Source: an uncultured Anaeroplasmataceae bacterium (GTDB lineage: Bacteria > Bacillota_I > Bacilli_A > Acholeplasmatales > Anaeroplasmataceae). From it: a stretch of DNA of 64,000 nucleotides. The stretch spans positions 57,376 through 121,375 of the forward strand of contig CAJTTN010000006.1 of the NCBI GenBank assembly GCA_910579215.1. The letters are read 5' to 3'. The notes beneath the pieces were generated by a model. The model had not been told where the DNA came from, did not search any database, and saw nothing but the letters and a program-made list of their open reading frames with translations. Shown here in pieces: positions 6,228 through 43,330 of the stretch. Position 1 is the first letter of the stretch. Every line of letters begins with the position of its first letter. Position numbers and translations under genes: made by a program.

Positions 6228-7844
6228 ATGGCGGTAAGCAGTGTTAGCGTAGCTTTATTCAAGAAAATGGTAATGAATGGCGCTATTAATTTAAAGAATA
6301 ACCACAAAAAAGTGGATGAGTTAAATGTTTTCCCTGTGCCAGATGGAGATACTGGAACAAATATGTCGATGACAGTGATGTCAGGAGTACGTGAGATGGA
6401 TTCTTGCGTTTCCTCATCTATAATAGAAGTAGGTAAGGTTTTATCCCGTGGAGCATTAATGGGTGCTCGTGGAAACTCTGGAGTTATCTTATCTCAATTT
6501 TTCCGAGGAATATATGTTGGCATGCAGAAGTTGGAGCATAATTATTTATCTATAGAAGATTTAATGAATTGCTTAGAGTCTGGGTGCAAGGTTGCTTATA
6601 AGGCTGTAATGGAGCCAGTTGAGGGAACAATACTTACTGTAGTACGTGAGGCTGCAGAGCATACTAAGGAGCATTTGTCTGAATTTAAGACCGTAGAAGA
6701 TTTAATGAACTACTATGAAAATGAGGCAAAGAAATCTTTAGATAATACACCTAATCTATTACCAGTTTTAAAAGAGTCTGGTGTTGTTGATAGTGGTGGT
6801 GCTGGATTTTTAGAGATTATTAAGGGAATGATTATGGCTTTACGTGGTCAAATGCTTGAAGCTACTGATGGATCTCAAAAAACTGAAACAGAAAAGCCTG
6901 TAGAAGTAAAAAATATTTATTGTACAGAATTCTTTATTGAACTTAAGGATACCAAAAATTTTGATGAGAGTGCATTAAAATCTTCTTTATCATGCCTTGG
7001 AGAATCTTTGAATGTAGTTTTAGATGCTTCCGTTTGTAAAATACATTTACATACGGATCATCCTGGCTTAGTATTAGAGCAAGCCCTTAAACATGGAGAG
7101 CTTACAGATATAAAGATTGAAAATCAACGTGTAGGGCATACGCATCTAGAAAAAGGTGCTAAGGTTTTAGGTGCTATCCCAAAGAAGACCTTTGCTTTAG
7201 TAGCCGTTTGCTTTGGTGATGGAATTACACAAACCTTTCAGGATTTAGGTGTAGACTATGTGATTGAAGGGGGACAAACGATGAACCCTTCCACTGAAGC
7301 CTTTGTTGATGCATGTACGAAGGTAAATGCAGAGAATATTATTATAATTCCTAACAATGGGAATGTGATTATGGCAGCAAAACAAGCCTCTACAATGGTG
7401 AAGGAGTCAAAGGTAGCTGTACTTAATGCAAAGACGATAGCTCAAGGCTATGCATCTTTGATGGTTTTTGATTCAGAAGCTGATTTGGAAACAAATTTAG
7501 AGGCAATGAATGAAGCTGTTCAAAATGTAAAGACCGGCGAAATCACATATTCAGTTAGAGATACAGAAATTGGTGGAATTAAGATTCTAGCAGGGGATTT
7601 TATGGGTATTGCAAATGGAGAAATTGTAGTATCTACTAAACTTCAAGAAGATGCTCTAAAAGCACTTTTAGAGAAAATTATAGGCGAGGAAAGTCAAATT
7701 GTGACATTCTTTTGTGGAAAAGAAGCTTCTGAGGAAGAAAAAAGCTGTCTTGAGGAATTTTGCTTGGGTATAAATTCTGATATTGAAGTTGAAATTATTG
7801 ATGGGGAACAGGAGATTTATTCCTATATTATTGCTGTTGAATAA
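6228..7844 (+). CDS. DAK2 domain-containing protein (YloV-like)
   Basis: Dak phosphatase motif VFPVPDGDTGTNM plus GNSGVILSQ, a DegV-like C-terminal half, and conserved position between rpmB and recG. The start was taken at the ATG with RBS aggagg (6215-6220) rather than the TTG at 6207. Confidence 0.85.
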   Translation: MAVSSVSVALFKKMVMNGAINLKNNHKKVDELNVFPVPDGDTGTNMSMTVMSGVREMDSCVSSSIIEVGKVLSRGALMGARGNSGVILSQFFRGIYVGMQKLEHNYLSIEDLMNCLESGCKVAYKAVMEPVEGTILTVVREAAEHTKEHLSEFKTVEDLMNYYENEAKKSLDNTPNLLPVLKESGVVDSGGAGFLEIIKGMIMALRGQMLEATDGSQKTETEKPVEVKNIYCTEFFIELKDTKNFDESALKSSLSCLGESLNVVLDASVCKIHLHTDHPGLVLEQALKHGELTDIKIENQRVGHTHLEKGAKVLGAIPKKTFALVAVCFGDGITQTFQDLGVDYVIEGGQTMNPSTEAFVDACTKVNAENIIIIPNNGNVIMAAKQASTMVKESKVAVLNAKTIAQGYASLMVFDSEADLETNLEAMNEAVQNVKTGEITYSVRDTEIGGIKILAGDFMGIANGEIVVSTKLQEDALKALLEKIIGEESQIVTFFCGKEASEEEKSCLEEFCLGINSDIEVEIIDGEQEIYSYIIAVE

Positions 7845-7860
7845 TAATAGAAAATAGGCA

Positions 7861-7890
7861 AATGGTTGGAGGAATCCAACCATTTTTGTT
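7861..7890 (+). terminator. Intrinsic terminator or attenuator hairpin between the DAK2 gene and recG
   Basis: Perfect 10-bp stem aatggttgga / tccaaccatt with loop ggaa, followed by tttttgtt. Confidence 0.6.
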
Positions 7891-7904
7891 AAGAAAAAGG
7901 AGAG

Positions 7905-9899
7905 ATGATTTTGGATCTAAAGGATATTAAAAAAATTGGACCAGTTACATTAGAGCGCTTAAATGCAAATCATATTTATACGCCTAAAGATCTCCTTTTA
8001 TATTTTCCTAGAAAATATAATTATTATCAGGTGGACAATTCTAATGCCTTTTGTGGAGAGGCTTTATGCTTTAAGGCAAGGGTTGCTTCTCGACCCATAT
8101 GGATAAAGACGCATAAAAATTCTAGGGCATTTGTTTTCTATATTTTTGTAAATGAACGAAAAATAAAATGTGTAATTTATTCTAGTGATTATCTTCGGTT
8201 TAAGCTTCAAATTGGATTAGACATAATTTGTTTTGGAAAATATAAGGAAAAGGAAAATGAATTTAGTCTAAGTACAGTTTTTTTTGAAGATTTTTCTAGT
8301 CGAATTGAGTTAGATTATGGAATATTAGATATAAAAAATAAGATGCTACAAAATGCAGTAAAAAATGTTTTAGATTCGGGATTTAGTTTAGAGGATGATT
8401 TACCTATACAATTTATTGAAAAATACAGGTTAGGCTCTTTAAATGAAATTGTAAAGCTAGCACATTTTCCAAGAAATGTGCAGGATTGTGAAAGAGTTAG
8501 AAGAAGAATCCGTTATGAGGATTTCTTTTGGTATACTCTTTCATTAGAGGCTTTAAAAAAGCTTAGAAATGAAGATATAAAGCAACCTAAAATAATTAAT
8601 GAAAGTCTAATTGAAGATACAATTTCAAGTTTACCTTTTGAACTTACCATTGATCAAAGAAATGTAATTCAAGATTGCTTGCGTGATTTAAAATCAAATA
8701 AAACTATGAATCGATTGATTCAAGGAGATGTAGGTTCAGGTAAAACTATAGTAGCTTTTATTACAGCACTTGCTGCTATTACTGCTGGGTATCAGGTAGC
8801 TATAATGGTTCCTACAGAAATTCTTGCTAAACAGCATTTATTAACGATTAAAAGACTTTTTCCATTCTTGGCTTCAGAATTACTCGTTTCTTCCTTGAAA
8901 CAAAAAGAAAAAGAGGATATTTTATTTCGACTATTGCATGGGAGAGTTTCCATCTTAATTGGCACACATGCATTATTAGAGAATAAAGTTATTTTTAAAA
9001 ATTTGGGGTTAGTAGTAATTGATGAACAGCATCGTTTTGGTGTAAGGCAACGTCAAACCTTATTAAAAAAACTTAAGGGAGTTGATGCTCTATATCTCAC
9101 TGCAACCCCTATTCCAAGAACTTTAGGCTTAACCTCATTTGGTGATTTAGACCTATCCCTCATTCATACTATGCCAAAGAATAGGAGACCAGTGGAAACA
9201 AAGGTAATTTCAATGGAGGATATCTCTACCTTAGCACTGACTTTAAGAAGACATTTGGCATGTGATGAGCAAATCTATGTAGTTGTTCCCTTAATTAAAG
9301 AGAGTGAAAGCTTAGATTTTATTGATATGAATAAGGCTATGGAAATATTTGAACAGCTTTTACCAGAGGCAAAATTAGGAGTTCTCCATGGCAAAATGAA
9401 AGCAAACGAAAAAGATGAAATTATGTCTTCCTTTAAATCAGGTAAAATAGAATGTCTTTTATCTACAACGGTGATAGAGGTGGGAGTTGATGTTTCTAAT
9501 GCTACAGTAATGGTCATATTAGATGCAGAGCGATATGGACTATCTCAAATTCATCAGCTTCGTGGACGTGTTGGTAGAGGGGAAATTCAATCCTATTGTT
9601 ATCTAGTAACTACAAAAGCTTATGTGCAACGCCTAGATATTTTATCTAAAATTCAAGATGGATTTACACTTGCAGAAGAGGATTTCAAGCTGCGTGGACC
9701 AGGAGATTATTTGGGTGAAGAACAGTCAGGATTTATGAGTTTAAATTTTGATTATGAATCCAATGATGCGATTATTTGGAAATGTGCCTTAGAGGATAGC
9801 AGAGCCTATTTAGAGGAATATGGAAAGGATTTCCATAAAAATCAAAGAGTTGAAGATATTTTCAATCAGATTTCTTATAAAAAAAATAAAATAAACTAG
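7905..9899 (+). CDS. recG: ATP-dependent DNA helicase RecG
   Basis: Walker A GDVGSGKT, DEQHRFG box, QLRGRVGRG motif VI, an N-terminal wedge-type region, and a TRG-like LRGPGDYLG. Confidence 0.95.
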   Translation: MILDLKDIKKIGPVTLERLNANHIYTPKDLLLYFPRKYNYYQVDNSNAFCGEALCFKARVASRPIWIKTHKNSRAFVFYIFVNERKIKCVIYSSDYLRFKLQIGLDIICFGKYKEKENEFSLSTVFFEDFSSRIELDYGILDIKNKMLQNAVKNVLDSGFSLEDDLPIQFIEKYRLGSLNEIVKLAHFPRNVQDCERVRRRIRYEDFFWYTLSLEALKKLRNEDIKQPKIINESLIEDTISSLPFELTIDQRNVIQDCLRDLKSNKTMNRLIQGDVGSGKTIVAFITALAAITAGYQVAIMVPTEILAKQHLLTIKRLFPFLASELLVSSLKQKEKEDILFRLLHGRVSILIGTHALLENKVIFKNLGLVVIDEQHRFGVRQRQTLLKKLKGVDALYLTATPIPRTLGLTSFGDLDLSLIHTMPKNRRPVETKVISMEDISTLALTLRRHLACDEQIYVVVPLIKESESLDFIDMNKAMEIFEQLLPEAKLGVLHGKMKANEKDEIMSSFKSGKIECLLSTTVIEVGVDVSNATVMVILDAERYGLSQIHQLRGRVGRGEIQSYCYLVTTKAYVQRLDILSKIQDGFTLAEEDFKLRGPGDYLGEEQSGFMSLNFDYESNDAIIWKCALEDSRAYLEEYGKDFHKNQRVEDIFNQISYKKNKIN

Positions 9900-31650: not shown

Positions 31651-32028
31651 ATGCTAGAATTTTTCGAATATGATGATTCTAACGGTTATGCAAGTGTTTA
31701 TGATAGTCATATTACCCTTAATAAAACACTTCTAAAATATCTTAAGGATGCATATCGTGTTAGAGTAGCAGTAGATAAGGTTAAGGATAATATTCATATT
31801 TATGTGATCAATAAGGATTATGCATTAAGTGGTGAATTAAAGGAATCCTCTTTATTACCTGTTTCTATTTCTAAATCCTATGCAAGAATCTGTTCTAGAC
31901 CATTAATAGAGTATATTTCTAATGTTTTTGGCCTAACGATTGCTAAAAAAGAATTTAAAAGATTTAAGGCGTGTTATGATGATGTAAAACAGGTTATACT
32001 AATAGATATGAAAGGAGAGGTATCCTAA
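31651..32028 (+). CDS. Hypothetical cytoplasmic protein (125 aa)
   Basis: RBS aaggaggt upstream. The stop overlaps the NfeD start (taATG). No TM segment and no family recognised. Confidence 0.55.
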   Translation: MLEFFEYDDSNGYASVYDSHITLNKTLLKYLKDAYRVRVAVDKVKDNIHIYVINKDYALSGELKESSLLPVSISKSYARICSRPLIEYISNVFGLTIAKKEFKRFKACYDDVKQVILIDMKGEVS

Positions 32029-32471
32029 TGGAAGCTTATATGGTTTGGATTTGGCTGAGTGCCTTTATTATCACTCTTGTTATAGAATCCATAACACAGG
32101 ATTTAGTAGCAGTGTGGTTTTCTCTAGGTTCAATTATTGCTTTAATATTATCAGCCTTTCCAGCAATTGATTGGTATATTGAGGTCGTTGTTTTTGCTGT
32201 GGTTTCTTTCTTGTCTTTAGGCTTGACTAGACCATTTGCTAAAAAATTATTATTTAATGCTACTAGATATACTAATGTTGATGAATTTGTAGGGAAAAGG
32301 GTAAAGGTTATTTCTGACATTTCAAAGTATGAGAATGGAGAAGTAAAAATTCATGATATTATTTATAATGCAAGTCTAATGGAGGAAGAGACGGAAACCA
32401 TTCATAAGGATGAAATTGTAGAAATTGTGACCTTGAAGGGGAACAAAGTAGTAGTAAGAAAAATTCAGTAA
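32028..32471 (+). CDS. NfeD family membrane protein
   Basis: Three N-terminal TM helices plus a C-terminal OB-fold-like segment (GKRVKVISDI...GEVKIHDIIYNA...IVEIVTLKGNKVVVRK), located directly upstream of an SPFH gene. Confidence 0.8.
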   Translation: MEAYMVWIWLSAFIITLVIESITQDLVAVWFSLGSIIALILSAFPAIDWYIEVVVFAVVSFLSLGLTRPFAKKLLFNATRYTNVDEFVGKRVKVISDISKYENGEVKIHDIIYNASLMEEETETIHKDEIVEIVTLKGNKVVVRKIQ

Positions 32472-32492
32472 AGGAAAGGAATAGTTTAATAT

Positions 32493-33434
32493 ATGAATAC
32501 AGGAATTATTGTTGCTATTGTATGTAGTGTAATTTTAGTTGTTATTGTTATTTTATTGATTACGAGAATAAAAATTGTTCGTCAAACACAGAAGTTGATT
32601 GTTGAGCGTTTAGGGGCCTATCACGCTACGTGGTCTGTAGGATTTCATTTCTTGGTACCATTTATTGATCGTGTAGCTCAGGTAGTATCTATGAAGGAGC
32701 AGGTTAACGATTTTGATCCACAGCCTGTGATTACAAAAGATAATGTTACTATGCAAATTGATACCGTGGTTTTCTTTCAGGTTACAGATCCAAAGCTATA
32801 TTCCTATGGTGTAGAAAATCCAATTGCCGCTTTAGAAAACTTATCTTCTACAACTTTACGTAATATTATTGGTGAATTAGATTTGGATGAAACTTTAACT
32901 TCACGAGATATTATAAATACAAAGATGAGATCTATTCTAGATGAAGCAACAGATCCTTGGGGTATTAAGGTTAATCGTGTAGAGGTTAAAAATATTTTAC
33001 CACCAAAGGATATTCGAGATGCTATGGAGCGTCAAATGCGTGCTGAGCGTGAACGTCGTGAGAAAATTTTGCTTGCAGAAGGTGAAAAAAGAAGTCAAAT
33101 ACTTCAAGCAGAGGGAGAAAAAGAATCTCAAATCTTAAGAGCAGAGGCAGAAAAGGAAGCCACAATTAAAAAGGCAGAAGCAGAGGCAGCTGCAATTCTT
33201 AAGGTAAGAACAGCAGAGGCTGAAGGTGTTAGACTTACTCGTCAGGCACAAGCAGAAGGATATAGAATGCTAGTAGATGCAGGCTTAACAAAAGAGGTTT
33301 TAGCAATTAAATCCTTTGAAGCTCTAGAGAAGGTTGCTGATGGGCAGTCTACTAAACTAATCATTCCATCTGATATGCAAAATTTAGCTGCTACTATTGC
33401 AAGTTTAGCAGAGGTTGTTAAGGATAAGAAATAA
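32493..33434 (+). CDS. SPFH/band-7 protein, stomatin (QmcA/slipin)-like
   Basis: N-terminal TM helix, SPFH core (IVERLGAYH..., ITKDNVTMQIDTVVFFQVTDP, RNIIGELDLDETLTSRD, WGIKVNRVEVKNI), and an EA-rich coiled-coil tail. Confidence 0.9.
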   Translation: MNTGIIVAIVCSVILVVIVILLITRIKIVRQTQKLIVERLGAYHATWSVGFHFLVPFIDRVAQVVSMKEQVNDFDPQPVITKDNVTMQIDTVVFFQVTDPKLYSYGVENPIAALENLSSTTLRNIIGELDLDETLTSRDIINTKMRSILDEATDPWGIKVNRVEVKNILPPKDIRDAMERQMRAERERREKILLAEGEKRSQILQAEGEKESQILRAEAEKEATIKKAEAEAAAILKVRTAEAEGVRLTRQAQAEGYRMLVDAGLTKEVLAIKSFEALEKVADGQSTKLIIPSDMQNLAATIASLAEVVKDKK

Positions 33435-35618: not shown

Positions 35619-35695
35619 TGGCGCACCCTAGAGGATTCGAACCCCTAACCTTTTGATCCGTAGTCAAACGATCTATCCAATTGATCTAAGGGTGC
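35619..35695 (-). tRNA. tRNA-Arg (anticodon ACG), CCA encoded
   Basis: The reverse complement folds by hand as a cloverleaf. Acceptor GCACCCT/AGGGTGC, D stem GATC/GATC, anticodon stem TTTGA/TCAAA with loop CTACGGA, T arm AGGGG-TTCGAAT-CCTCT, then G-CCA. Confidence 0.92.
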
Positions 35696-35709
35696 ATATG
35701 ATTTATTTT

Positions 35710-35785
35710 TGGCGGTTCGGACGGGACTTGAACCCGCGATCTCCAGTGTGACAGACTAGCATGTTAACCACTACACCACCGAACC
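35710..35785 (-). tRNA. tRNA-Asp (anticodon GTC), CCA encoded
   Basis: The reverse complement is GGTTCGGTGGTGTAGTGGTTAACATGCTAGTCTGTCACACTGGAGATCGCGGGTTCAAGTCCCGTCCGAACCGCCA. Anticodon stem CTAGT/ACTGG with loop CTGTCAC, and T arm GCGGG-TTCAAGT-CCCGT. Confidence 0.92.
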
Positions 35786-37801: not shown

Positions 37802-37866
37802 ATTGTATAATAGATTTAGCATTATAATTATATATAATTTTAAAAAAGGAAAAGAGGTTGATTTTT

Positions 37867-39381
37867 ATGGAATTCCCAATACTTATTACAATTATAGTAG
37901 TGGCAGTAGTAATTTTTTTAGTGATTCTTTTCGCTTTATCTTATGTTAAGGCAGGTCCTGATACGGCAATTATGGTAACAGGAGCAGGAAAAAAGAAAAT
38001 TTTAATTGGTAAGGCGGGCTTTAGAATACCCTTTTTTCAAAGAACCGATTCCCTTTCTTTAAAAGCCTTTCAAGTAGATATTAAAACAGAGGAAGCCATT
38101 CCAACTAAGGAATTTATAAACATTAATGTAGATGGTGTAGCTAATTTAAAAATATCTTCTGATACGGAGATGCTAGAAAAGGCATTTGAATCTATTTTAA
38201 ATATGGCTGAATCTGAGCTTCAAAATCAGCTCCAGCAGGTATTGCAGGGAAACATGCGTGAAATTGTTGGTACAGTTGAAATTAAAGAGCTAGTAAGAGA
38301 TCGTCAAGGAGTTGCAAATAAGGTTAAGGAAAATGTTGTACCTGATATGGCTAAGCTTGGAATAGAGGTTGTAAACTTCAATATACAGTCCTTTTCAGAT
38401 GATAATAAGGTTATTGAAAATCTAGGTATAGATAATATTAGTCAAATTTCTAAGGATGCCTCAATAGCTAGAGCGAATGCTGAGCGAGATGTAGCTATTG
38501 CCTCAAGTGCAGCAAGTGAAGCAGCTAATAAAGCTAAAGTAGAATCTCAAATGAAGATTGTGCAGCAAAATACAGATTATGAGCTTCAGGCTGCAGCATT
38601 GAAGCAAAAATCAGATACGGCAAAGGCTGTTGCAGATGCTGCCTATGATATTGAAAAGCAGAAGCGTTTAGAACAGATTAATGTTGCCGAGGTGAACGCA
38701 AATATTGCTAAACGCGAAAGAGAAGTTGAGCTTGGAAATCGTGAAGTTGAATTAAAGGAAAAGAAGCTTCAGGCTGAGGTAAATAAGGTAGCAGATTCAA
38801 AAAAATATGCTGACCAAATGGCTGCAGAAGCGGATTTATTCACGCGTCAAAAGGCTGCAGAAGCAAAGAAATATGAATTAGAACAAGAAGCAGAAATGCA
38901 AAAGATAAAAGCAGAAGCAGATAAAATTGCAAGACAAAAATCAGCAGAGGCTTTTAAGATTCAAGCAGATTTAGAGGCTGCAGCGCAAATTGCGAGAGCA
39001 AACGCAGCTAAAGAAGCAGCTTTAGCTGAAGCCCAGGGAATAGAGGCTAAGGGTAAAGCAGAAGCGGATGCAATACGTGCTAAAGCAGAGGCTATGAAAC
39101 AATATGGAGAAGCTGCAACCTTACAGTTAATTTTAGATTCAGGTGTACTTCCTGAAATGGTTAAGGCTTATGCAGAACCAGTGGCTAGTGCAATGAGTAA
39201 GATAGATAGTATTACTATGTATGGAGAAGGAAATACAGCTAAGCTTACGGAGGAGATATCTAAAAATGGAACCCAAATTTTTGCAGGACTTGAAAAGGCA
39301 ACAGGACTAGATATAAAATCCTTACTTGCAGGTTTTTTGGGTGGTAAGCTGATAGAAAAAAGCAAATCTGACAAAGAATAA
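37867..39381 (+). CDS. floT: Flotillin (SPFH domain, FloT/YuaG-like)
   Basis: N-terminal membrane hairpin, SPFH core, and a ~200 aa Ala/Glu/Lys-rich flotillin coiled-coil (AEAKKYELEQEAEMQKIKAEADKIARQKSAEA...). About 505 aa. The start was taken at the ATG behind RBS aaagagg rather than the TTG at 37858. Confidence 0.88.
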   Translation: MEFPILITIIVVAVVIFLVILFALSYVKAGPDTAIMVTGAGKKKILIGKAGFRIPFFQRTDSLSLKAFQVDIKTEEAIPTKEFININVDGVANLKISSDTEMLEKAFESILNMAESELQNQLQQVLQGNMREIVGTVEIKELVRDRQGVANKVKENVVPDMAKLGIEVVNFNIQSFSDDNKVIENLGIDNISQISKDASIARANAERDVAIASSAASEAANKAKVESQMKIVQQNTDYELQAAALKQKSDTAKAVADAAYDIEKQKRLEQINVAEVNANIAKREREVELGNREVELKEKKLQAEVNKVADSKKYADQMAAEADLFTRQKAAEAKKYELEQEAEMQKIKAEADKIARQKSAEAFKIQADLEAAAQIARANAAKEAALAEAQGIEAKGKAEADAIRAKAEAMKQYGEAATLQLILDSGVLPEMVKAYAEPVASAMSKIDSITMYGEGNTAKLTEEISKNGTQIFAGLEKATGLDIKSLLAGFLGGKLIEKSKSDKE

Positions 39382-39390
39382 AATCAGTTG

Positions 39391-39416
39391 AGGAAGCCAT
39401 AACGCTTCCTTTTTGT
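39391..39416 (+). terminator. Rho-independent terminator
   Basis: Stem aggaagc / gcttcct with loop cataac, followed by ttttgtt. Confidence 0.7.
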
Positions 39417-39454
39417 TCCTTTAACGAGTATAGGTATTTATTATTAAGGAAAGG

Positions 39455-40549
39455 ATGAAGAATATGTTAAAATCGTTGATTTTGGAAAATGAAAATAAAA
39501 TAGAAACCTTTGATATCTCCTATTATGAGGCACAAAGGAATCATCCTGTAATGGCAGCTATTTCTGCCCTTGAGACAACCAATGAAATTCAAAAGTGCTA
39601 TTTTGATTTAGAGGACTCTAGTTTGGACTTTAATGCTTTAAAATTGTATGCCTTACTTCAAAGCCTATTTGTCTCTGTTGACTCCTTATATGCTTTATCC
39701 ATCTCCTTGACTAAGTCTAAAAATTTAATCAATATAAATAGAAATCCTGTATTAAGAGAATTAAAATACATAAGAAATGATGTGGTTGGACATCCTGCAA
39801 ACAGGATGTTTAATTCTACAACCTTGGCATATTGCATTTTAGATATAGAGAGTATAAATAAATATGAATTCTCATATAATATTTTTTCTGGACAAGGAAT
39901 AGAAAGAAAAAAAATAAATCTTACAGAGCTTGTAGAAAACTATTATATAGAATGTAATAGCTTTTTAGAGGAACTTCATCGTGTAGAAGTTAAAGAAAGA
40001 CAAACCTCAAATTTTTCTAAATTATCCTTGGAGGCATTAAATCTTTTTGATATGAGAGGAGATTACTATGCTTGCTTAGCTAAATTGAAAAAGTTATATT
40101 TAAAACATTATCCAACAGCGACGCCAAGTCAGCATAGGTTTTTATGGAGAATGGAGCTGATTGATGAGCTTAGAGACTTTTCCTACCAAGATTTTGATAT
40201 TCAGGATTTAAAAGAGTATGCCATAGGGCTGGAAATAATAAAAATATATCAGTCCTTTTCGGGGAAGGAATATTCTGTATTTTTAGGTAGACGAAAGCCA
40301 TCGCTAATCTCAGAATTTTACCGTTTTTTAAAGAAAAATAAAAAAAGCTTACCATTGATTGATAAAATTAATGATATAAAGCAGCCCTTATTAAAGGATT
40401 CCTTAAATCAGCTATTTCAATTAGCAAAAGAAAAGAATGCCCATGGGGTTATAAAGTATTTAAATTTTTTGAAAACATTATATGATAATAAGGAAGCTAC
40501 CTTATTATATGCCTTTGCTTTGCCACTCAAAGATTATAAAAATAAGTAA
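39455..40549 (+). CDS. Hypothetical all-helical protein with a HEPN-like Rx5H motif
   Basis: 364 aa with no TM segment. The motif LKYIRNDVVGHPANR (R107...H113, nt 39773-39793) follows a long helix (LKLYALLQSLFVSVDSLYALSISL). It is a monocistronic unit between two terminator/promoter regions. Confidence 0.5.
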   Translation: MKNMLKSLILENENKIETFDISYYEAQRNHPVMAAISALETTNEIQKCYFDLEDSSLDFNALKLYALLQSLFVSVDSLYALSISLTKSKNLININRNPVLRELKYIRNDVVGHPANRMFNSTTLAYCILDIESINKYEFSYNIFSGQGIERKKINLTELVENYYIECNSFLEELHRVEVKERQTSNFSKLSLEALNLFDMRGDYYACLAKLKKLYLKHYPTATPSQHRFLWRMELIDELRDFSYQDFDIQDLKEYAIGLEIIKIYQSFSGKEYSVFLGRRKPSLISEFYRFLKKNKKSLPLIDKINDIKQPLLKDSLNQLFQLAKEKNAHGVIKYLNFLKTLYDNKEATLLYAFALPLKDYKNK

Positions 40550-40613
40550 GATTTCTATAGATATATGCTTTATTTTGGTGTATAATTAGGTTTGTTTTGT
40601 TGGAGGTTATTTT

Positions 40614-42446
40614 ATGGATATAAGAAATATTGCAATTATAGCACACGTTGACCACGGAAAAACCACTTTAGTAGATAAGCTTTTGAGAAGCTCACACACC
40701 TTTAGAGATAATCAAGTGGTAGAAGAACGTGTAATGGATTCTAATGCTTTAGAGAAAGAGCGAGGAATTACCATTCTAGCAAAAAACACGGCAATTACCT
40801 ATAAGAATACAAAGATAAATATTTTAGATACTCCAGGACATGCTGATTTTTCTGGGGAAGTTGAACGAATCATGAAGATGGTTGATGGTGTTGTCTTAGT
40901 TGTAGATGCATATGAGGGGACTATGCCACAAACTAGATTTGTTCTAAAAAAAGCCTTTGAAGAACATTTAAAGCCTATTGTAGTTATTAACAAGGTGGAT
41001 AAACCCTCTGCTAGACCACTTGAGGTTATTGATGAGGTCTTAGAGCTATTTATAGATTTGGGATGTGATGTGGAAGAATTAGATTTTCCTGTTTGTTATG
41101 CCTCAGCAGTTAATAATACCTGTTCCTTATCCAGTGATTTGGCAACACAGACTAATGGGATGGAGCCATTGCTAGATATGATTATAAAATATATCCCTGC
41201 TCCTAATATGGATAAGGAAGCTCCTTTACAGCTCCAGCCTGCATTATTAGATTATACAGATTTTGTTGGACGTATAGGAATTGGTAGAATAGCTAGAGGA
41301 ACGATTCATACGGGAGAGGTTGTTTCATGTTGTCGTGTAGATGGCTCCATTAAATCCTTTCGCGTACAAAAGCTTTATGGATTTTTAGGGTTGGACCGTA
41401 TAGAAATCAAAGAAGCATCTGCTGGAGAAATAGTTGCTGTCTCTGGCTTGGGAGACATTTCTGTAGGAGAAACGATTTGTACGTTAGGGCAAGAAGAACC
41501 ACTAGAAAAAATACACATTTCTGAACCAACTGTACAAATGACCTTTGGAACAAATACCTCTCCTTTTTGTGGAAAAGATGGGAAAAATGTGACTGCAACC
41601 AAAATTGAAGAACGCCTTTTTCGTGAGGTTCAAAAGGATGTTTCCTTAAGAGTGAAACGTCTTGAGGCTTTAGAGGAATGGTTAGTATCTGGTAGGGGAG
41701 AGCTTCATTTAGGGATTTTAATAGAAACTATGAGAAGAGAGGGCTATGAGTTTCAGGTATCTAGACCACAGGTTATAATGAAAGAAATTGATGGAGTTCT
41801 TTGTGAACCTTATGAATATTGTGTGATAGATGTTCCTAATGAATCCGCAGGAGCTATCATTGAAATGATGGGAAATCGTCATGGAACTATGGAAACCATG
41901 AGTAATACAGAAACACAGACGAGATTGATTTATAAAATGCCGTCACGTGGATTGATAGGTTTTAATACAAATTTTATGACCTTGACAAAAGGCTATGGAA
42001 TAATCAATCATAGCTTTCTAGAGTATAGACCTGTTGAGTCTATTAATATTGCAGAACGACCTACAGGAGTTTTAGTATCTATGGCACAGGGACAATCTAC
42101 GGCCTATTCTATTGGGGCATTGGAGGATAGAGGCTCTATGTTTATTGCTCCAGGAGAAGAAATTTATGAAGGTATGATAGTTGGAGAGGCAAATAAGCCC
42201 CTAGATCTTGCTGTTAATGTTGTAAGAGCAAAACAGCAAACAAATACACGCTCCTCAAACAAGGATATGACAGTTGTATTGAAAACACCAAGAGTTCTTA
42301 CCCTAGAAGCATGCTTAGAGTTTATTAATGAAGATGAGCTTGTGGAAATCACACCTAAAAAAATAAGATTACGTAAAAAGATTTTAGATACGGTAGAACG
42401 CAAGAAATATGATGCGAAAATGAGAGCTTCTAAGGAAGAAAGTTAA
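40614..42446 (+). CDS. typA: Translational GTPase TypA/BipA
   Basis: G motifs AHVDHGKTTL, DTPGHADF and NKVD, with EF-G-like domains. 610 aa. Confidence 0.96.
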   Translation: MDIRNIAIIAHVDHGKTTLVDKLLRSSHTFRDNQVVEERVMDSNALEKERGITILAKNTAITYKNTKINILDTPGHADFSGEVERIMKMVDGVVLVVDAYEGTMPQTRFVLKKAFEEHLKPIVVINKVDKPSARPLEVIDEVLELFIDLGCDVEELDFPVCYASAVNNTCSLSSDLATQTNGMEPLLDMIIKYIPAPNMDKEAPLQLQPALLDYTDFVGRIGIGRIARGTIHTGEVVSCCRVDGSIKSFRVQKLYGFLGLDRIEIKEASAGEIVAVSGLGDISVGETICTLGQEEPLEKIHISEPTVQMTFGTNTSPFCGKDGKNVTATKIEERLFREVQKDVSLRVKRLEALEEWLVSGRGELHLGILIETMRREGYEFQVSRPQVIMKEIDGVLCEPYEYCVIDVPNESAGAIIEMMGNRHGTMETMSNTETQTRLIYKMPSRGLIGFNTNFMTLTKGYGIINHSFLEYRPVESINIAERPTGVLVSMAQGQSTAYSIGALEDRGSMFIAPGEEIYEGMIVGEANKPLDLAVNVVRAKQQTNTRSSNKDMTVVLKTPRVLTLEACLEFINEDELVEITPKKIRLRKKILDTVERKKYDAKMRASKEES

Positions 42447-42501
42447 ATTTTTCTTGTAATACATAAGAGTTTGATGTAGAATAGAATTGGAGGGAAAGGC
42501 T

Positions 42502-42831
42502 ATGGAAAAGAGAGACATTATAGTTGTAATTTTGTTAGGTCTATTTACCTGTGGTATCTATTCCATTTATTGGTTCTATGTAAATGCTGAAGCTTTAAAT
42601 AAAGAAGTAGAGGATGACGAGCCATTAATGAATTATATACTAGCTGTTCTATTAGGAATGGTAACTTGTGGCATCTTTATGCTATATTGGTTATATAAAT
42701 TCTATCTTAAAGTGGATAAATATACAGGTGAAAATAATGCCATTTTAAATTTCTTGCTAGGTATTATTGCTACACCTATTGTTGGAATGGCTATCGCACA
42801 AAATTCAATTAACAAAAAATTAGAAAATTAA
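42502..42831 (+). CDS. DUF4234 family membrane protein
   Basis: The repeated motif LFTCGIYSIYWFY / MVTCGIFMLYWLY is typical of DUF4234. The start was taken at the ATG behind RBS ggaggg. Confidence 0.7.
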   Translation: MEKRDIIVVILLGLFTCGIYSIYWFYVNAEALNKEVEDDEPLMNYILAVLLGMVTCGIFMLYWLYKFYLKVDKYTGENNAILNFLLGIIATPIVGMAIAQNSINKKLEN

Positions 42832-42837
42832 AAAAAA

Positions 42838-42875
42838 TTCACTTGCTTGGTTTGGCAAGTGAATTTGTTTCTTTT
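42838..42875 (+). terminator. Rho-independent terminator
   Basis: Stem ttcacttgc / gcaagtgaa followed by tttgtttcttttt. Confidence 0.7.
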
Positions 42876-42898
42876 TGGGGAAAGGAGGAGGTAAGGGT

Positions 42899-43330
42899 AT
42901 GAAAAAACCTTTATTAAACATAATGAGTTTTATTAGTAGATTTAATATTCCAATCTGTTTATTTGGACTTTATGTATTCCTTACACGTGCAATGGAAATT
43001 CAAAATTGTGTTATTAAGTGGATAATAGGATACCCTTGTCCAGGCTGTGGCATGACAAGAGCAGTCTTTTCCCTAATCCAATTTGATTTTATTCAAGCTT
43101 TTAGATATAACCCCTTTGTCTATCTTTTACCCTTTCTTTTTCTTGGTATAGCCTTTCAGCACATAGACTTTGTAAAAAAAATCATTTCAAACAAATGGTT
43201 GGCCATTGGTATAGCTTCCTTGATTTTAATTGCTTATATTTTACGTTTTGTATATATCTATCCTGCTCCCCCTATGGATTTTTATGAGCATAACTTACTT
43301 TCTTATATTTTAAAACTGTTTAGTTCTTAA
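42899..43330 (+). CDS. DUF2752 family membrane protein
   Basis: The CPGCGMTRA motif after the first TM helix is the DUF2752 hallmark. The start was taken at the ATG behind aaaggaggagg. Confidence 0.7.
   Translation: MKKPLLNIMSFISRFNIPICLFGLYVFLTRAMEIQNCVIKWIIGYPCPGCGMTRAVFSLIQFDFIQAFRYNPFVYLLPFLFLGIAFQHIDFVKKIISNKWLAIGIASLILIAYILRFVYIYPAPPMDFYEHNLLSYILKLFSS

Follow-up and report, generated by a model that had tools for sequence, protein, structure and literature searches.

HEPN families are mutually very divergent. They are defined by an Rx4-6H motif with a polar residue (N, D or H) after the arginine; the motif lies where helix-3 ends and passes into the loop that leads to helix-4, and a conserved acidic residue is found on helix-2 (PMC3710099). 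The predominant role of HEPN domains is that of ribonucleases (RNases) in conflict systems, some families are non-catalytic binders, and in eukaryotes HEPN domains were co-opted for core RNA processing, for example in Las1 (PMC3710099). Here we describe a gene of an uncultured Anaeroplasmataceae bacterium, located in a 64,000-nucleotide (nt) stretch of contig CAJTTN010000006.1 (the window), which codes for a 364 amino acid (aa) protein and is flanked by a flotillin gene upstream and by typA/bipA downstream (Table 1). TypA/BipA is a stress GTPase that binds the ribosome. BipA occupies the ribosomal A site and assists in 50S maturation (PMC8313970). The reading favoured here, with a probability of about 0.45, is that the gene encodes a resident, vertically inherited protein consisting of an N-terminal HEPN-like endoribonuclease domain and a lineage-specific helical domain, and that it is likely expressed with typA or tied to it in function.

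A previous reading of the window, made from the sequence only, had pointed out the R107-x5-H113 motif, the open reading frame (ORF) and its flotillin and typA flanks, all of which were borne out by an ORF check and by Pfam matches of the neighbours. The residue numbering of that reading, which refers to the 364 aa form, is kept here. In the motif stretch, LKYIRNDVVGHPANR, positions 107 and 113 are occupied by R and H, respectively. As a bare string the motif is not beyond chance. Besides this ORF the window has 43 large ORFs; 27 of them contain Rx4-6H, for which 0.89 occurrences are expected per 364 aa, and four contain the narrower pattern R[NDH]x3-5H (0.08 per 364 aa). The signal is its invariance across homologues. 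A search of 5.8 billion proteins yielded 161 full-length homologues, all about 360 aa long, unannotated and encoded in metagenome-assembled genomes (MAGs) of Anaeroplasmataceae/Acholeplasmatales; the window protein falls in a gut "Acholeplasmatales bacterium" cluster. An alignment of 44 sequences, extending to 38% identity, showed the block I106-R107-N108-D109-V-V-G112-H113-P114 and R117 to be invariant. When 185,579 species genomes were scanned, 80 loci were recovered at 28-68% identity, and R107, N108, G112, H113 and P114 were kept at all of them; only D109 varied, to N or E, in five. Among 78 full-length species orthologues (to 28% identity) R107, N108, V110, V111, G112, H113, P114 and R117 were at least 95% conserved.

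Conservation extends beyond the motif. The most conserved stretch comprises residues 60-120, in which a single helix bears Q69, F72, V73, D76 and Y79, and N93, N95 and N97 belong to a loop rich in N. In the orthologues D76 is at least 95% conserved and N43 is invariant. After the addition of 38 distant relatives at about 20% identity, Q69, R107, N108, G112 and H113 were still invariant and D76 was at least 90% conserved. The HEPN form of the motif, with a polar residue after R, was thus found as R107-N108-x4-H113 in all of the ~80 species orthologues and in 38-147 distant relatives.

The distant relatives came from a HMMER profile search that covered 1.84 billion representatives exhaustively and gave 389 cluster representatives with E-values up to 0.001. 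Below the orthologues there was a tail, at E 1e-16 to 1e-9, of proteins of 170-540 aa that matched only profile positions ~20-200. They include a family of about 310 aa (P0265-P0379; Bacteriovorax, Deltaproteobacteria and environmental MAGs) with the consensus YGLLQALFVQQDA...IREIRNDxIGHPTxR, which has the same invariant Q, D, R-N and G-H-P as the window protein but differs from it in its unrelated C-terminal domain, which has weak SesA-like matches, in its scattered contexts and in having no typA linkage. Comparison with hhalign confirmed that the N-domains of the two families are homologous (99.8% probability, E 1.4e-29, 151 columns including the beta insert described below), and that the C-terminal domains are unrelated (0.5% probability). 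The domain that carries the motif is thus an evolutionary module of its own, occurring in two architectures.

The whole protein was modelled with AlphaFold2 from the family alignment, with a predicted local distance difference test (pLDDT) value of 89.1; a separate model of the first 203 residues, built from a mixed alignment of greater depth, gave a pLDDT of 90.2 and a predicted template modelling score of 0.83. The order of the elements in the model is that of Table 1. In it the motif forms the C-terminal end of helix 98-111 and runs into a lower-confidence loop, so that R, the polar N and H stand where the helix order of HEPN domains places them (PMC3710099). The HEPN form and place that the sequence-only reading had assigned to the motif agree with the models; two of its structural details had to be revised. 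The long helix 57-86 leads first into an 11-residue loop and then into a short helix (98-111), at the end of which the motif stands, and the ~240 residues after the motif are not helical repeats: they consist of a beta insert (115-155), a 44-residue helix and a helical domain of ~155 residues. The candidate for the helix-2 acidic residue is D76, which lies on helix 57-86 seven residues (two turns) from Q69, on the same helical face. It is D rather than E and has no K/R at +4, whereas Ex3[KR] is common on HEPN helix-2. The match to HEPN topology is one of the order and position of elements in sequence and secondary structure, not of coordinates.

Searches for named relatives were made at several levels. 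The absence of a recognisable family, already remarked on in the sequence-only reading, was confirmed, as the protein had no match in Pfam or NCBIfam and no sequence match in the PDB. The PADLOC scan of the protein gave only a weak and unrelated match, in the C-terminal part, the PHROGs scan gave none, and only noise came back when the PDB was searched by sequence, with the protein as well as with two profiles of the family. Among the distant relatives HEPN_AbiU2 (Pfam) was weakly matched by four of 147 members (best E 0.0099), and the PADLOC Csx1 model by one of 39; the HEPN_AbiU2-matching members were not among the 27 distant candidates scanned singly. Foldseek found no match in the PDB. In structural comparison solved HEPN proteins aligned over ~80% of their length with a root-mean-square deviation (rmsd) of 2.7-3.1, and the best structural matches were scaffold-like bundles. 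For the predicted models this outcome is compatible with HEPN and does not separate HEPN from other four-helix bundles.

The N-domain might accordingly be a new, non-HEPN helical bundle, in which the Q-D-R-N-G-H-P set would have arisen by convergence, as a site for catalysis or for binding a phosphate, nucleotide or metal ligand. We regard this as unlikely, if deserving serious thought. The HEPN_AbiU2 matches, weak as they are, recur, in a superfamily whose members diverge strongly from each other, and solved HEPN proteins align over most of their length as given above. Moreover, the form of the motif, the polar residue after R, the place at the end of helix-3, the candidate acid on helix-2 and the insert after the motif all fit the published description of HEPN (PMC3710099). 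From the motif, the topology and weak fold evidence we infer membership of the HEPN superfamily; membership of a named HEPN family was not shown. With all readings taken together, the chances are somewhat in favour of the domain being a HEPN-type RNase.

Four other assignments were considered. The HxFx(D/E)GNGR motif of Fic/Doc in a Fic fold was not found, nor was an Hpt profile with two-component context, as expected for an HPt phosphotransfer domain; these two and a DinB-like domain were rejected on motif spacing, lack of profile matches and genomic context. A HepT/DUF86-MNT toxin-antitoxin pair was rejected because there was no PF01934 match and the neighbours were flotillin or pdxK and typA, with no MNT antitoxin. 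No prior description of the family was found by literature search, and it has no curated model. We provisionally regard this unannotated family as a new member family of the HEPN kind, with an unusually stable chromosomal linkage.

To follow the genomic setting, the neighbours in the window were compared by tblastn with the 80 loci, 71 of which had enough downstream sequence. The gene was directly upstream of typA and on the same strand in 46 of these 71 loci, with a median gap of ~80 nt. Adjacency to typA was found in every identity bin, from >60% down to <33% (8/9, 7/9, 18/27, 8/11 and 5/15 loci). Other neighbours were kept over shorter distances: a pdxK-like gene was upstream in 12 of 18 loci at target identities of at least 45% versus 0 of 52 below, and DUF4234 was downstream in 8 of 14 versus 0 of 42. 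Adjacency to typA thus outlasts every other local adjacency. It is kept down to ~30% identity, and the gene is resident and vertically inherited across gut and rumen Anaeroplasmataceae/Acholeplasmatales. Where typA was not adjacent the neighbours were still housekeeping genes, e.g. those of pyruvate kinase and a P-type ATPase.

These data do not agree with the suggestion of the sequence-only reading that this is an inserted accessory gene. The gene that comes and goes, even among close relatives (L001-L019), is flotillin. Only six loci (L004, L007, L010, L011, L012 and L019) have it between the target and the pdxK-like gene, and it is absent from L001-L003, L008, L009 and L013-L016, where pdxK is ~20-30 nt from the target. 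Its presence or absence at otherwise matching loci indicates that flotillin, not the target, is the indel. In one Acholeplasmataceae MAG (CAZRJV01) two paralogues of the family (L067 and L072) were found on separate contigs, hence the gene is not strictly single-copy everywhere.

A role in abortive infection or as a toxin had also been suggested. In such a case the protein would be a stand-alone HEPN effector, kept inactive by its own C-terminal sensor and triggered by phage. This would agree with the predominance of conflict-system RNases among HEPN domains (PMC3710099) and with the fast evolution of the protein, which is much less conserved than typA (~30% versus ~70% identity). It would also agree with the accessory contexts of distant N-domain relatives: a CopG-antitoxin-like gene near an integrase, a Prok-E2/ThiF/PD-(D/E)XK island, and a relaxase/transposase element with a Cap4-NACHT gene. 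The ~310 aa family, which also occurs beside a DEAD/HNH helicase and between dnaK and dnaJ, indeed behaves as an accessory gene, and mobile or defence contexts were found only there. In the window family, by contrast, the chromosomal place beside typA is fixed across the family, flotillin being the indel, and housekeeping genes remain the neighbours even where typA is not adjacent. No conserved small partner or antitoxin-like ORF was detected at the loci examined, Pfam revealed no defence genes near the target in the window, tblastn against phages and plasmids found no copies, and the sole PADLOC match was the weak and unrelated one. The toxin or abortive-infection role is, in our view, rather improbable.

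In the mechanism that we infer, the gene product would be a two-domain cytoplasmic protein. Residues ~25-200 would form, through HEPN homology, a module of four core helices, with the beta insert and the long fourth helix following the motif. The RNase chemistry would be that of a metal-independent endoribonuclease site predicted to consist of R107, N108 and H113 together with D76 and Q69, and the active site would probably be completed by dimerisation, as in other HEPN enzymes. The C-terminal domain (204-359) may serve the recognition of substrate or partner, or regulation. Because the gene has long kept its place upstream of typA/bipA and has no antitoxin-like partner, its role would most likely be in chromosomal RNA metabolism or in the response to translation stress, functionally linked to typA through co-expression or co-regulation, and not in mobile abortive infection.

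Several points weigh against this reading. No significant link to any family was obtained with Pfam, NCBIfam or PADLOC for the protein, for 44 orthologues, for 39 and 147 distant relatives or for hmmemit consensus sequences. In the profile-profile comparison that the sequence-only reading had proposed, a genuine HepT/DUF86 alignment (an annotated MNT-HepT pair and 120 PF01934-confirmed homologues) gave non-significant hhalign scores in local, suboptimal and global modes (best probability 15.7%); helix 1 paired with helix 1 and "QQDAV" with "IQDAV", and the R..H motifs were out of register. That D76 and Q69 lie near R107 and H113 in space, and that the helices pack up and down, are predictions. 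Adjacency to typA was lost in 25 of the 71 loci, a promoter-like site stands between the coding sequence and typA, and the link to typA may be inherited gene order without functional meaning. The HEPN-RNase proposal of the sequence-only reading has therefore fared unevenly. It remains plausible on motif and topology, and of three outcomes that had been named as speaking against it (a fold lacking the four-helix core, a motif not conserved among homologues, and core conservation without RNase activity) two did not do so, the motif being invariant among homologues; what did not materialize is a profile-level link to HEPN.

A protein without enzymatic activity would account for part of the same data. 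It could be a helical assembly or regulatory factor associated with the ribosome or with TypA, the motif serving as an RNA- or protein-binding surface. The conserved typA linkage, the largely helical architecture with scaffold-like bundles as best structural matches, and the existence of non-catalytic HEPN binders (PMC3710099) would suit such a factor. However, the R/N/H/D/Q set is invariant over very large divergence and in two architectures, which is more typical of catalysis than of a surface coevolving with a partner, and the distant family keeps the motif without typA linkage. We consider a non-enzymatic role hardly probable.

The coordinates of the features are collected in Table 1. The start codon is probably not the first ATG, since the sequence resembling a ribosome-binding site, AAGGAAAGG, directly abuts it, whereas its spacing to the second in-frame ATG (~9 nt) is normal, and most database gene calls for the family are 361 aa long. 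With this start the residue numbers may be lower by three (R104/H110). Further upstream Pfam identified an M42 peptidase and the pyridoxal-kinase-like (pdxK-like) gene, and further downstream DUF4234, DUF2752 and pepT. The sequence-only reading had placed the gene between terminator and promoter elements. A hairpin after the flotillin gene and a promoter-like site before typA were indeed located, but the terminator scan found no terminator between the coding sequence and typA, and neither the terminator nor the promoter scan exceeded the shuffled expectation at the locus.

Table 1. Features of the locus in window coordinates; residue numbers refer to the 364 aa form
Feature	Coordinates	Strand	Remarks
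SPFH/flotillin gene, variable (present/absent) upstream neighbour	37858..39381	+	context, outside the unit
Terminator-like hairpin and T tract after the flotillin gene, upstream of the coding sequence	39390..39421 (hairpin 39390..39411)	+	
Coding sequence (CDS) of the 364 aa protein	39455..40549	+	probable true start is the second ATG, 39464, giving 361 aa
N-terminal conserved module, residues ~25-200, HEPN-like helical core and beta insert	39527..40054	+	common to the distant ~310 aa family
Core helix 1, residues 30-51; N43; D41 equivalent conserved in the distant family	39542..39607	+	
Core helix 2, residues 57-86; Q69 invariant in both families	39623..39712	+	D76 codon 39680-39682
Core helix 3, residues 98-111, ends in the motif	39746..39787	+	
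Motif I106-R107-N108-D109-V-V-G112-H113-P114-x-N-R117	39770..39805	+	R107 = 39773-39775; H113 = 39791-39793
Four-stranded beta insert between helices 3 and 4, residues 115-155; C127, F139, Y141 conserved	39797..39919	+	
Core helix 4, residues 156-199	39920..40051	+	
Lineage-specific all-helical C-terminal domain, residues 204-359; R228, W231, R232, K263, P311, Y352 conserved	40064..40531	+	
Promoter-like site TAGATA-17-TATAAT in the 64 nt spacer before typA	40558..40586	+	
typA/bipA, conserved downstream neighbour, same strand	40614..42446	+	median gap ~80 nt in relatives

At the locus itself neither the Rfam nor the tRNA scan detected an RNA element. The sole Rfam matches in the window were tRNA-Arg(ACG) and tRNA-Asp(GTC) at 35619-35785 on the minus strand, amid housekeeping genes that are otherwise on the plus strand. 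About 5 kb upstream of the gene, at 32028-33434, there is a second SPFH system, in which a stomatin/prohibitin-like protein comes after an NfeD-like membrane protein; this brings the SPFH-family proteins encoded in the window to two. The small membrane protein pair DUF4234 and DUF2752 (42487-43330) follows typA and is kept only in the closest relatives (target identity of at least 45%).

Further observations concern the distant relatives. In two lineages a family member (P0285, P0291) was found between dnaK and dnaJ (L085/L086 and L090/L091, ~7001-7942), each followed by a small Zn_ribbon_8 (FmdB-like) gene, which makes this heat-shock-operon context a recurring one. The Pfam domain SesA, the N-terminal domain of fungal NACHT/P-loop NTPases, was weakly matched by 15 of the 147 members (best E 5.7e-4) at consensus residues ~230-308. 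The C-terminal extension of P0233 (542 aa) contains at residues ~470-490 the canonical Rx4H-type string YRYRNYLIHN and could represent either another HEPN-like domain or an adjacent gene that has become fused; the C-terminal extensions of P0233 and P0347 had no relatives in the PDB. At L084 (1-2043) a multi-ubiquitin/Prok-E2/ThiF set, followed by a helix-turn-helix gene, PD-(D/E)XK and several large unannotated genes, lies beside a distant family member, and this gene set looks like a defence island.

If the HEPN assignment holds, the N-domain defines an unannotated domain family, lacking a Pfam or NCBIfam model, with two architectures: a mobile, scattered one, and one that in a genome-reduced lineage has its fixed place next to typA. 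Bacteria would then provide a clear example of a conflict-type RNase module turned into a resident gene, with a mutable candidate site (R107/H113, D76 and Q69) for a link that may exist at the RNA level to TypA/BipA, a protein whose role is itself under debate. Should the assignment fail, what remains is a new helical module of catalytic appearance. Either way the annotation is improved for a gene found in many MAGs of gut and rumen Acholeplasmatales.

Among described systems, proteins of the HepT/DUF86 type (B. subtilis YutE, 1ylm; Shewanella HepT SO_3166, 5yep) have Rx4H, whereas the window family has Rx5H with an obligatory G-H-P. The window family also differs in having a 40-residue beta insert after the motif and a C-terminal domain of ~155 residues, and in lacking the MNT partner, the PF01934 match and a significant hhalign score. 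The Lactococcus single-gene Abi proteins of the HEPN class (AbiU2, AbiV, AbiD/F and AbiJ; PMC3710099) are likewise encoded by stand-alone genes and combine a predicted HEPN-type motif with extra domains. Further points of likeness are the weak HEPN_AbiU2 matches of four of the 147 distant relatives and the accessory or mobile contexts in which distant relatives lie; unlike the Abi proteins, the window family is chromosomal, syntenic with typA, vertically inherited and off plasmids and phages, and has no Abi match in Pfam or PADLOC.

The eukaryotic Las1 and the KEN domain of Ire1/RNase L (PMC3710099) have no sequence relationship to the window family, which is bacterial and lineage-specific and whose link to the ribosome is read from gene order only. 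What they would share is the concept of a lineage-fixed HEPN nuclease tied to ribosome or translation biology, here by typA linkage. Taken further, and decidedly as a long shot, a HEPN-type nuclease may have been domesticated in the wall-less gut Acholeplasmatales as a partner of TypA/BipA, cleaving rRNA, tRNA or ribosome-bound mRNA in ribosome maturation or translation stress, with the sister family staying a mobile conflict gene. If true, such a partner would be a bacterial counterpart of the recruitment of HEPN domains to core RNA processing in eukaryotes, as seen with Las1 and Ire1.
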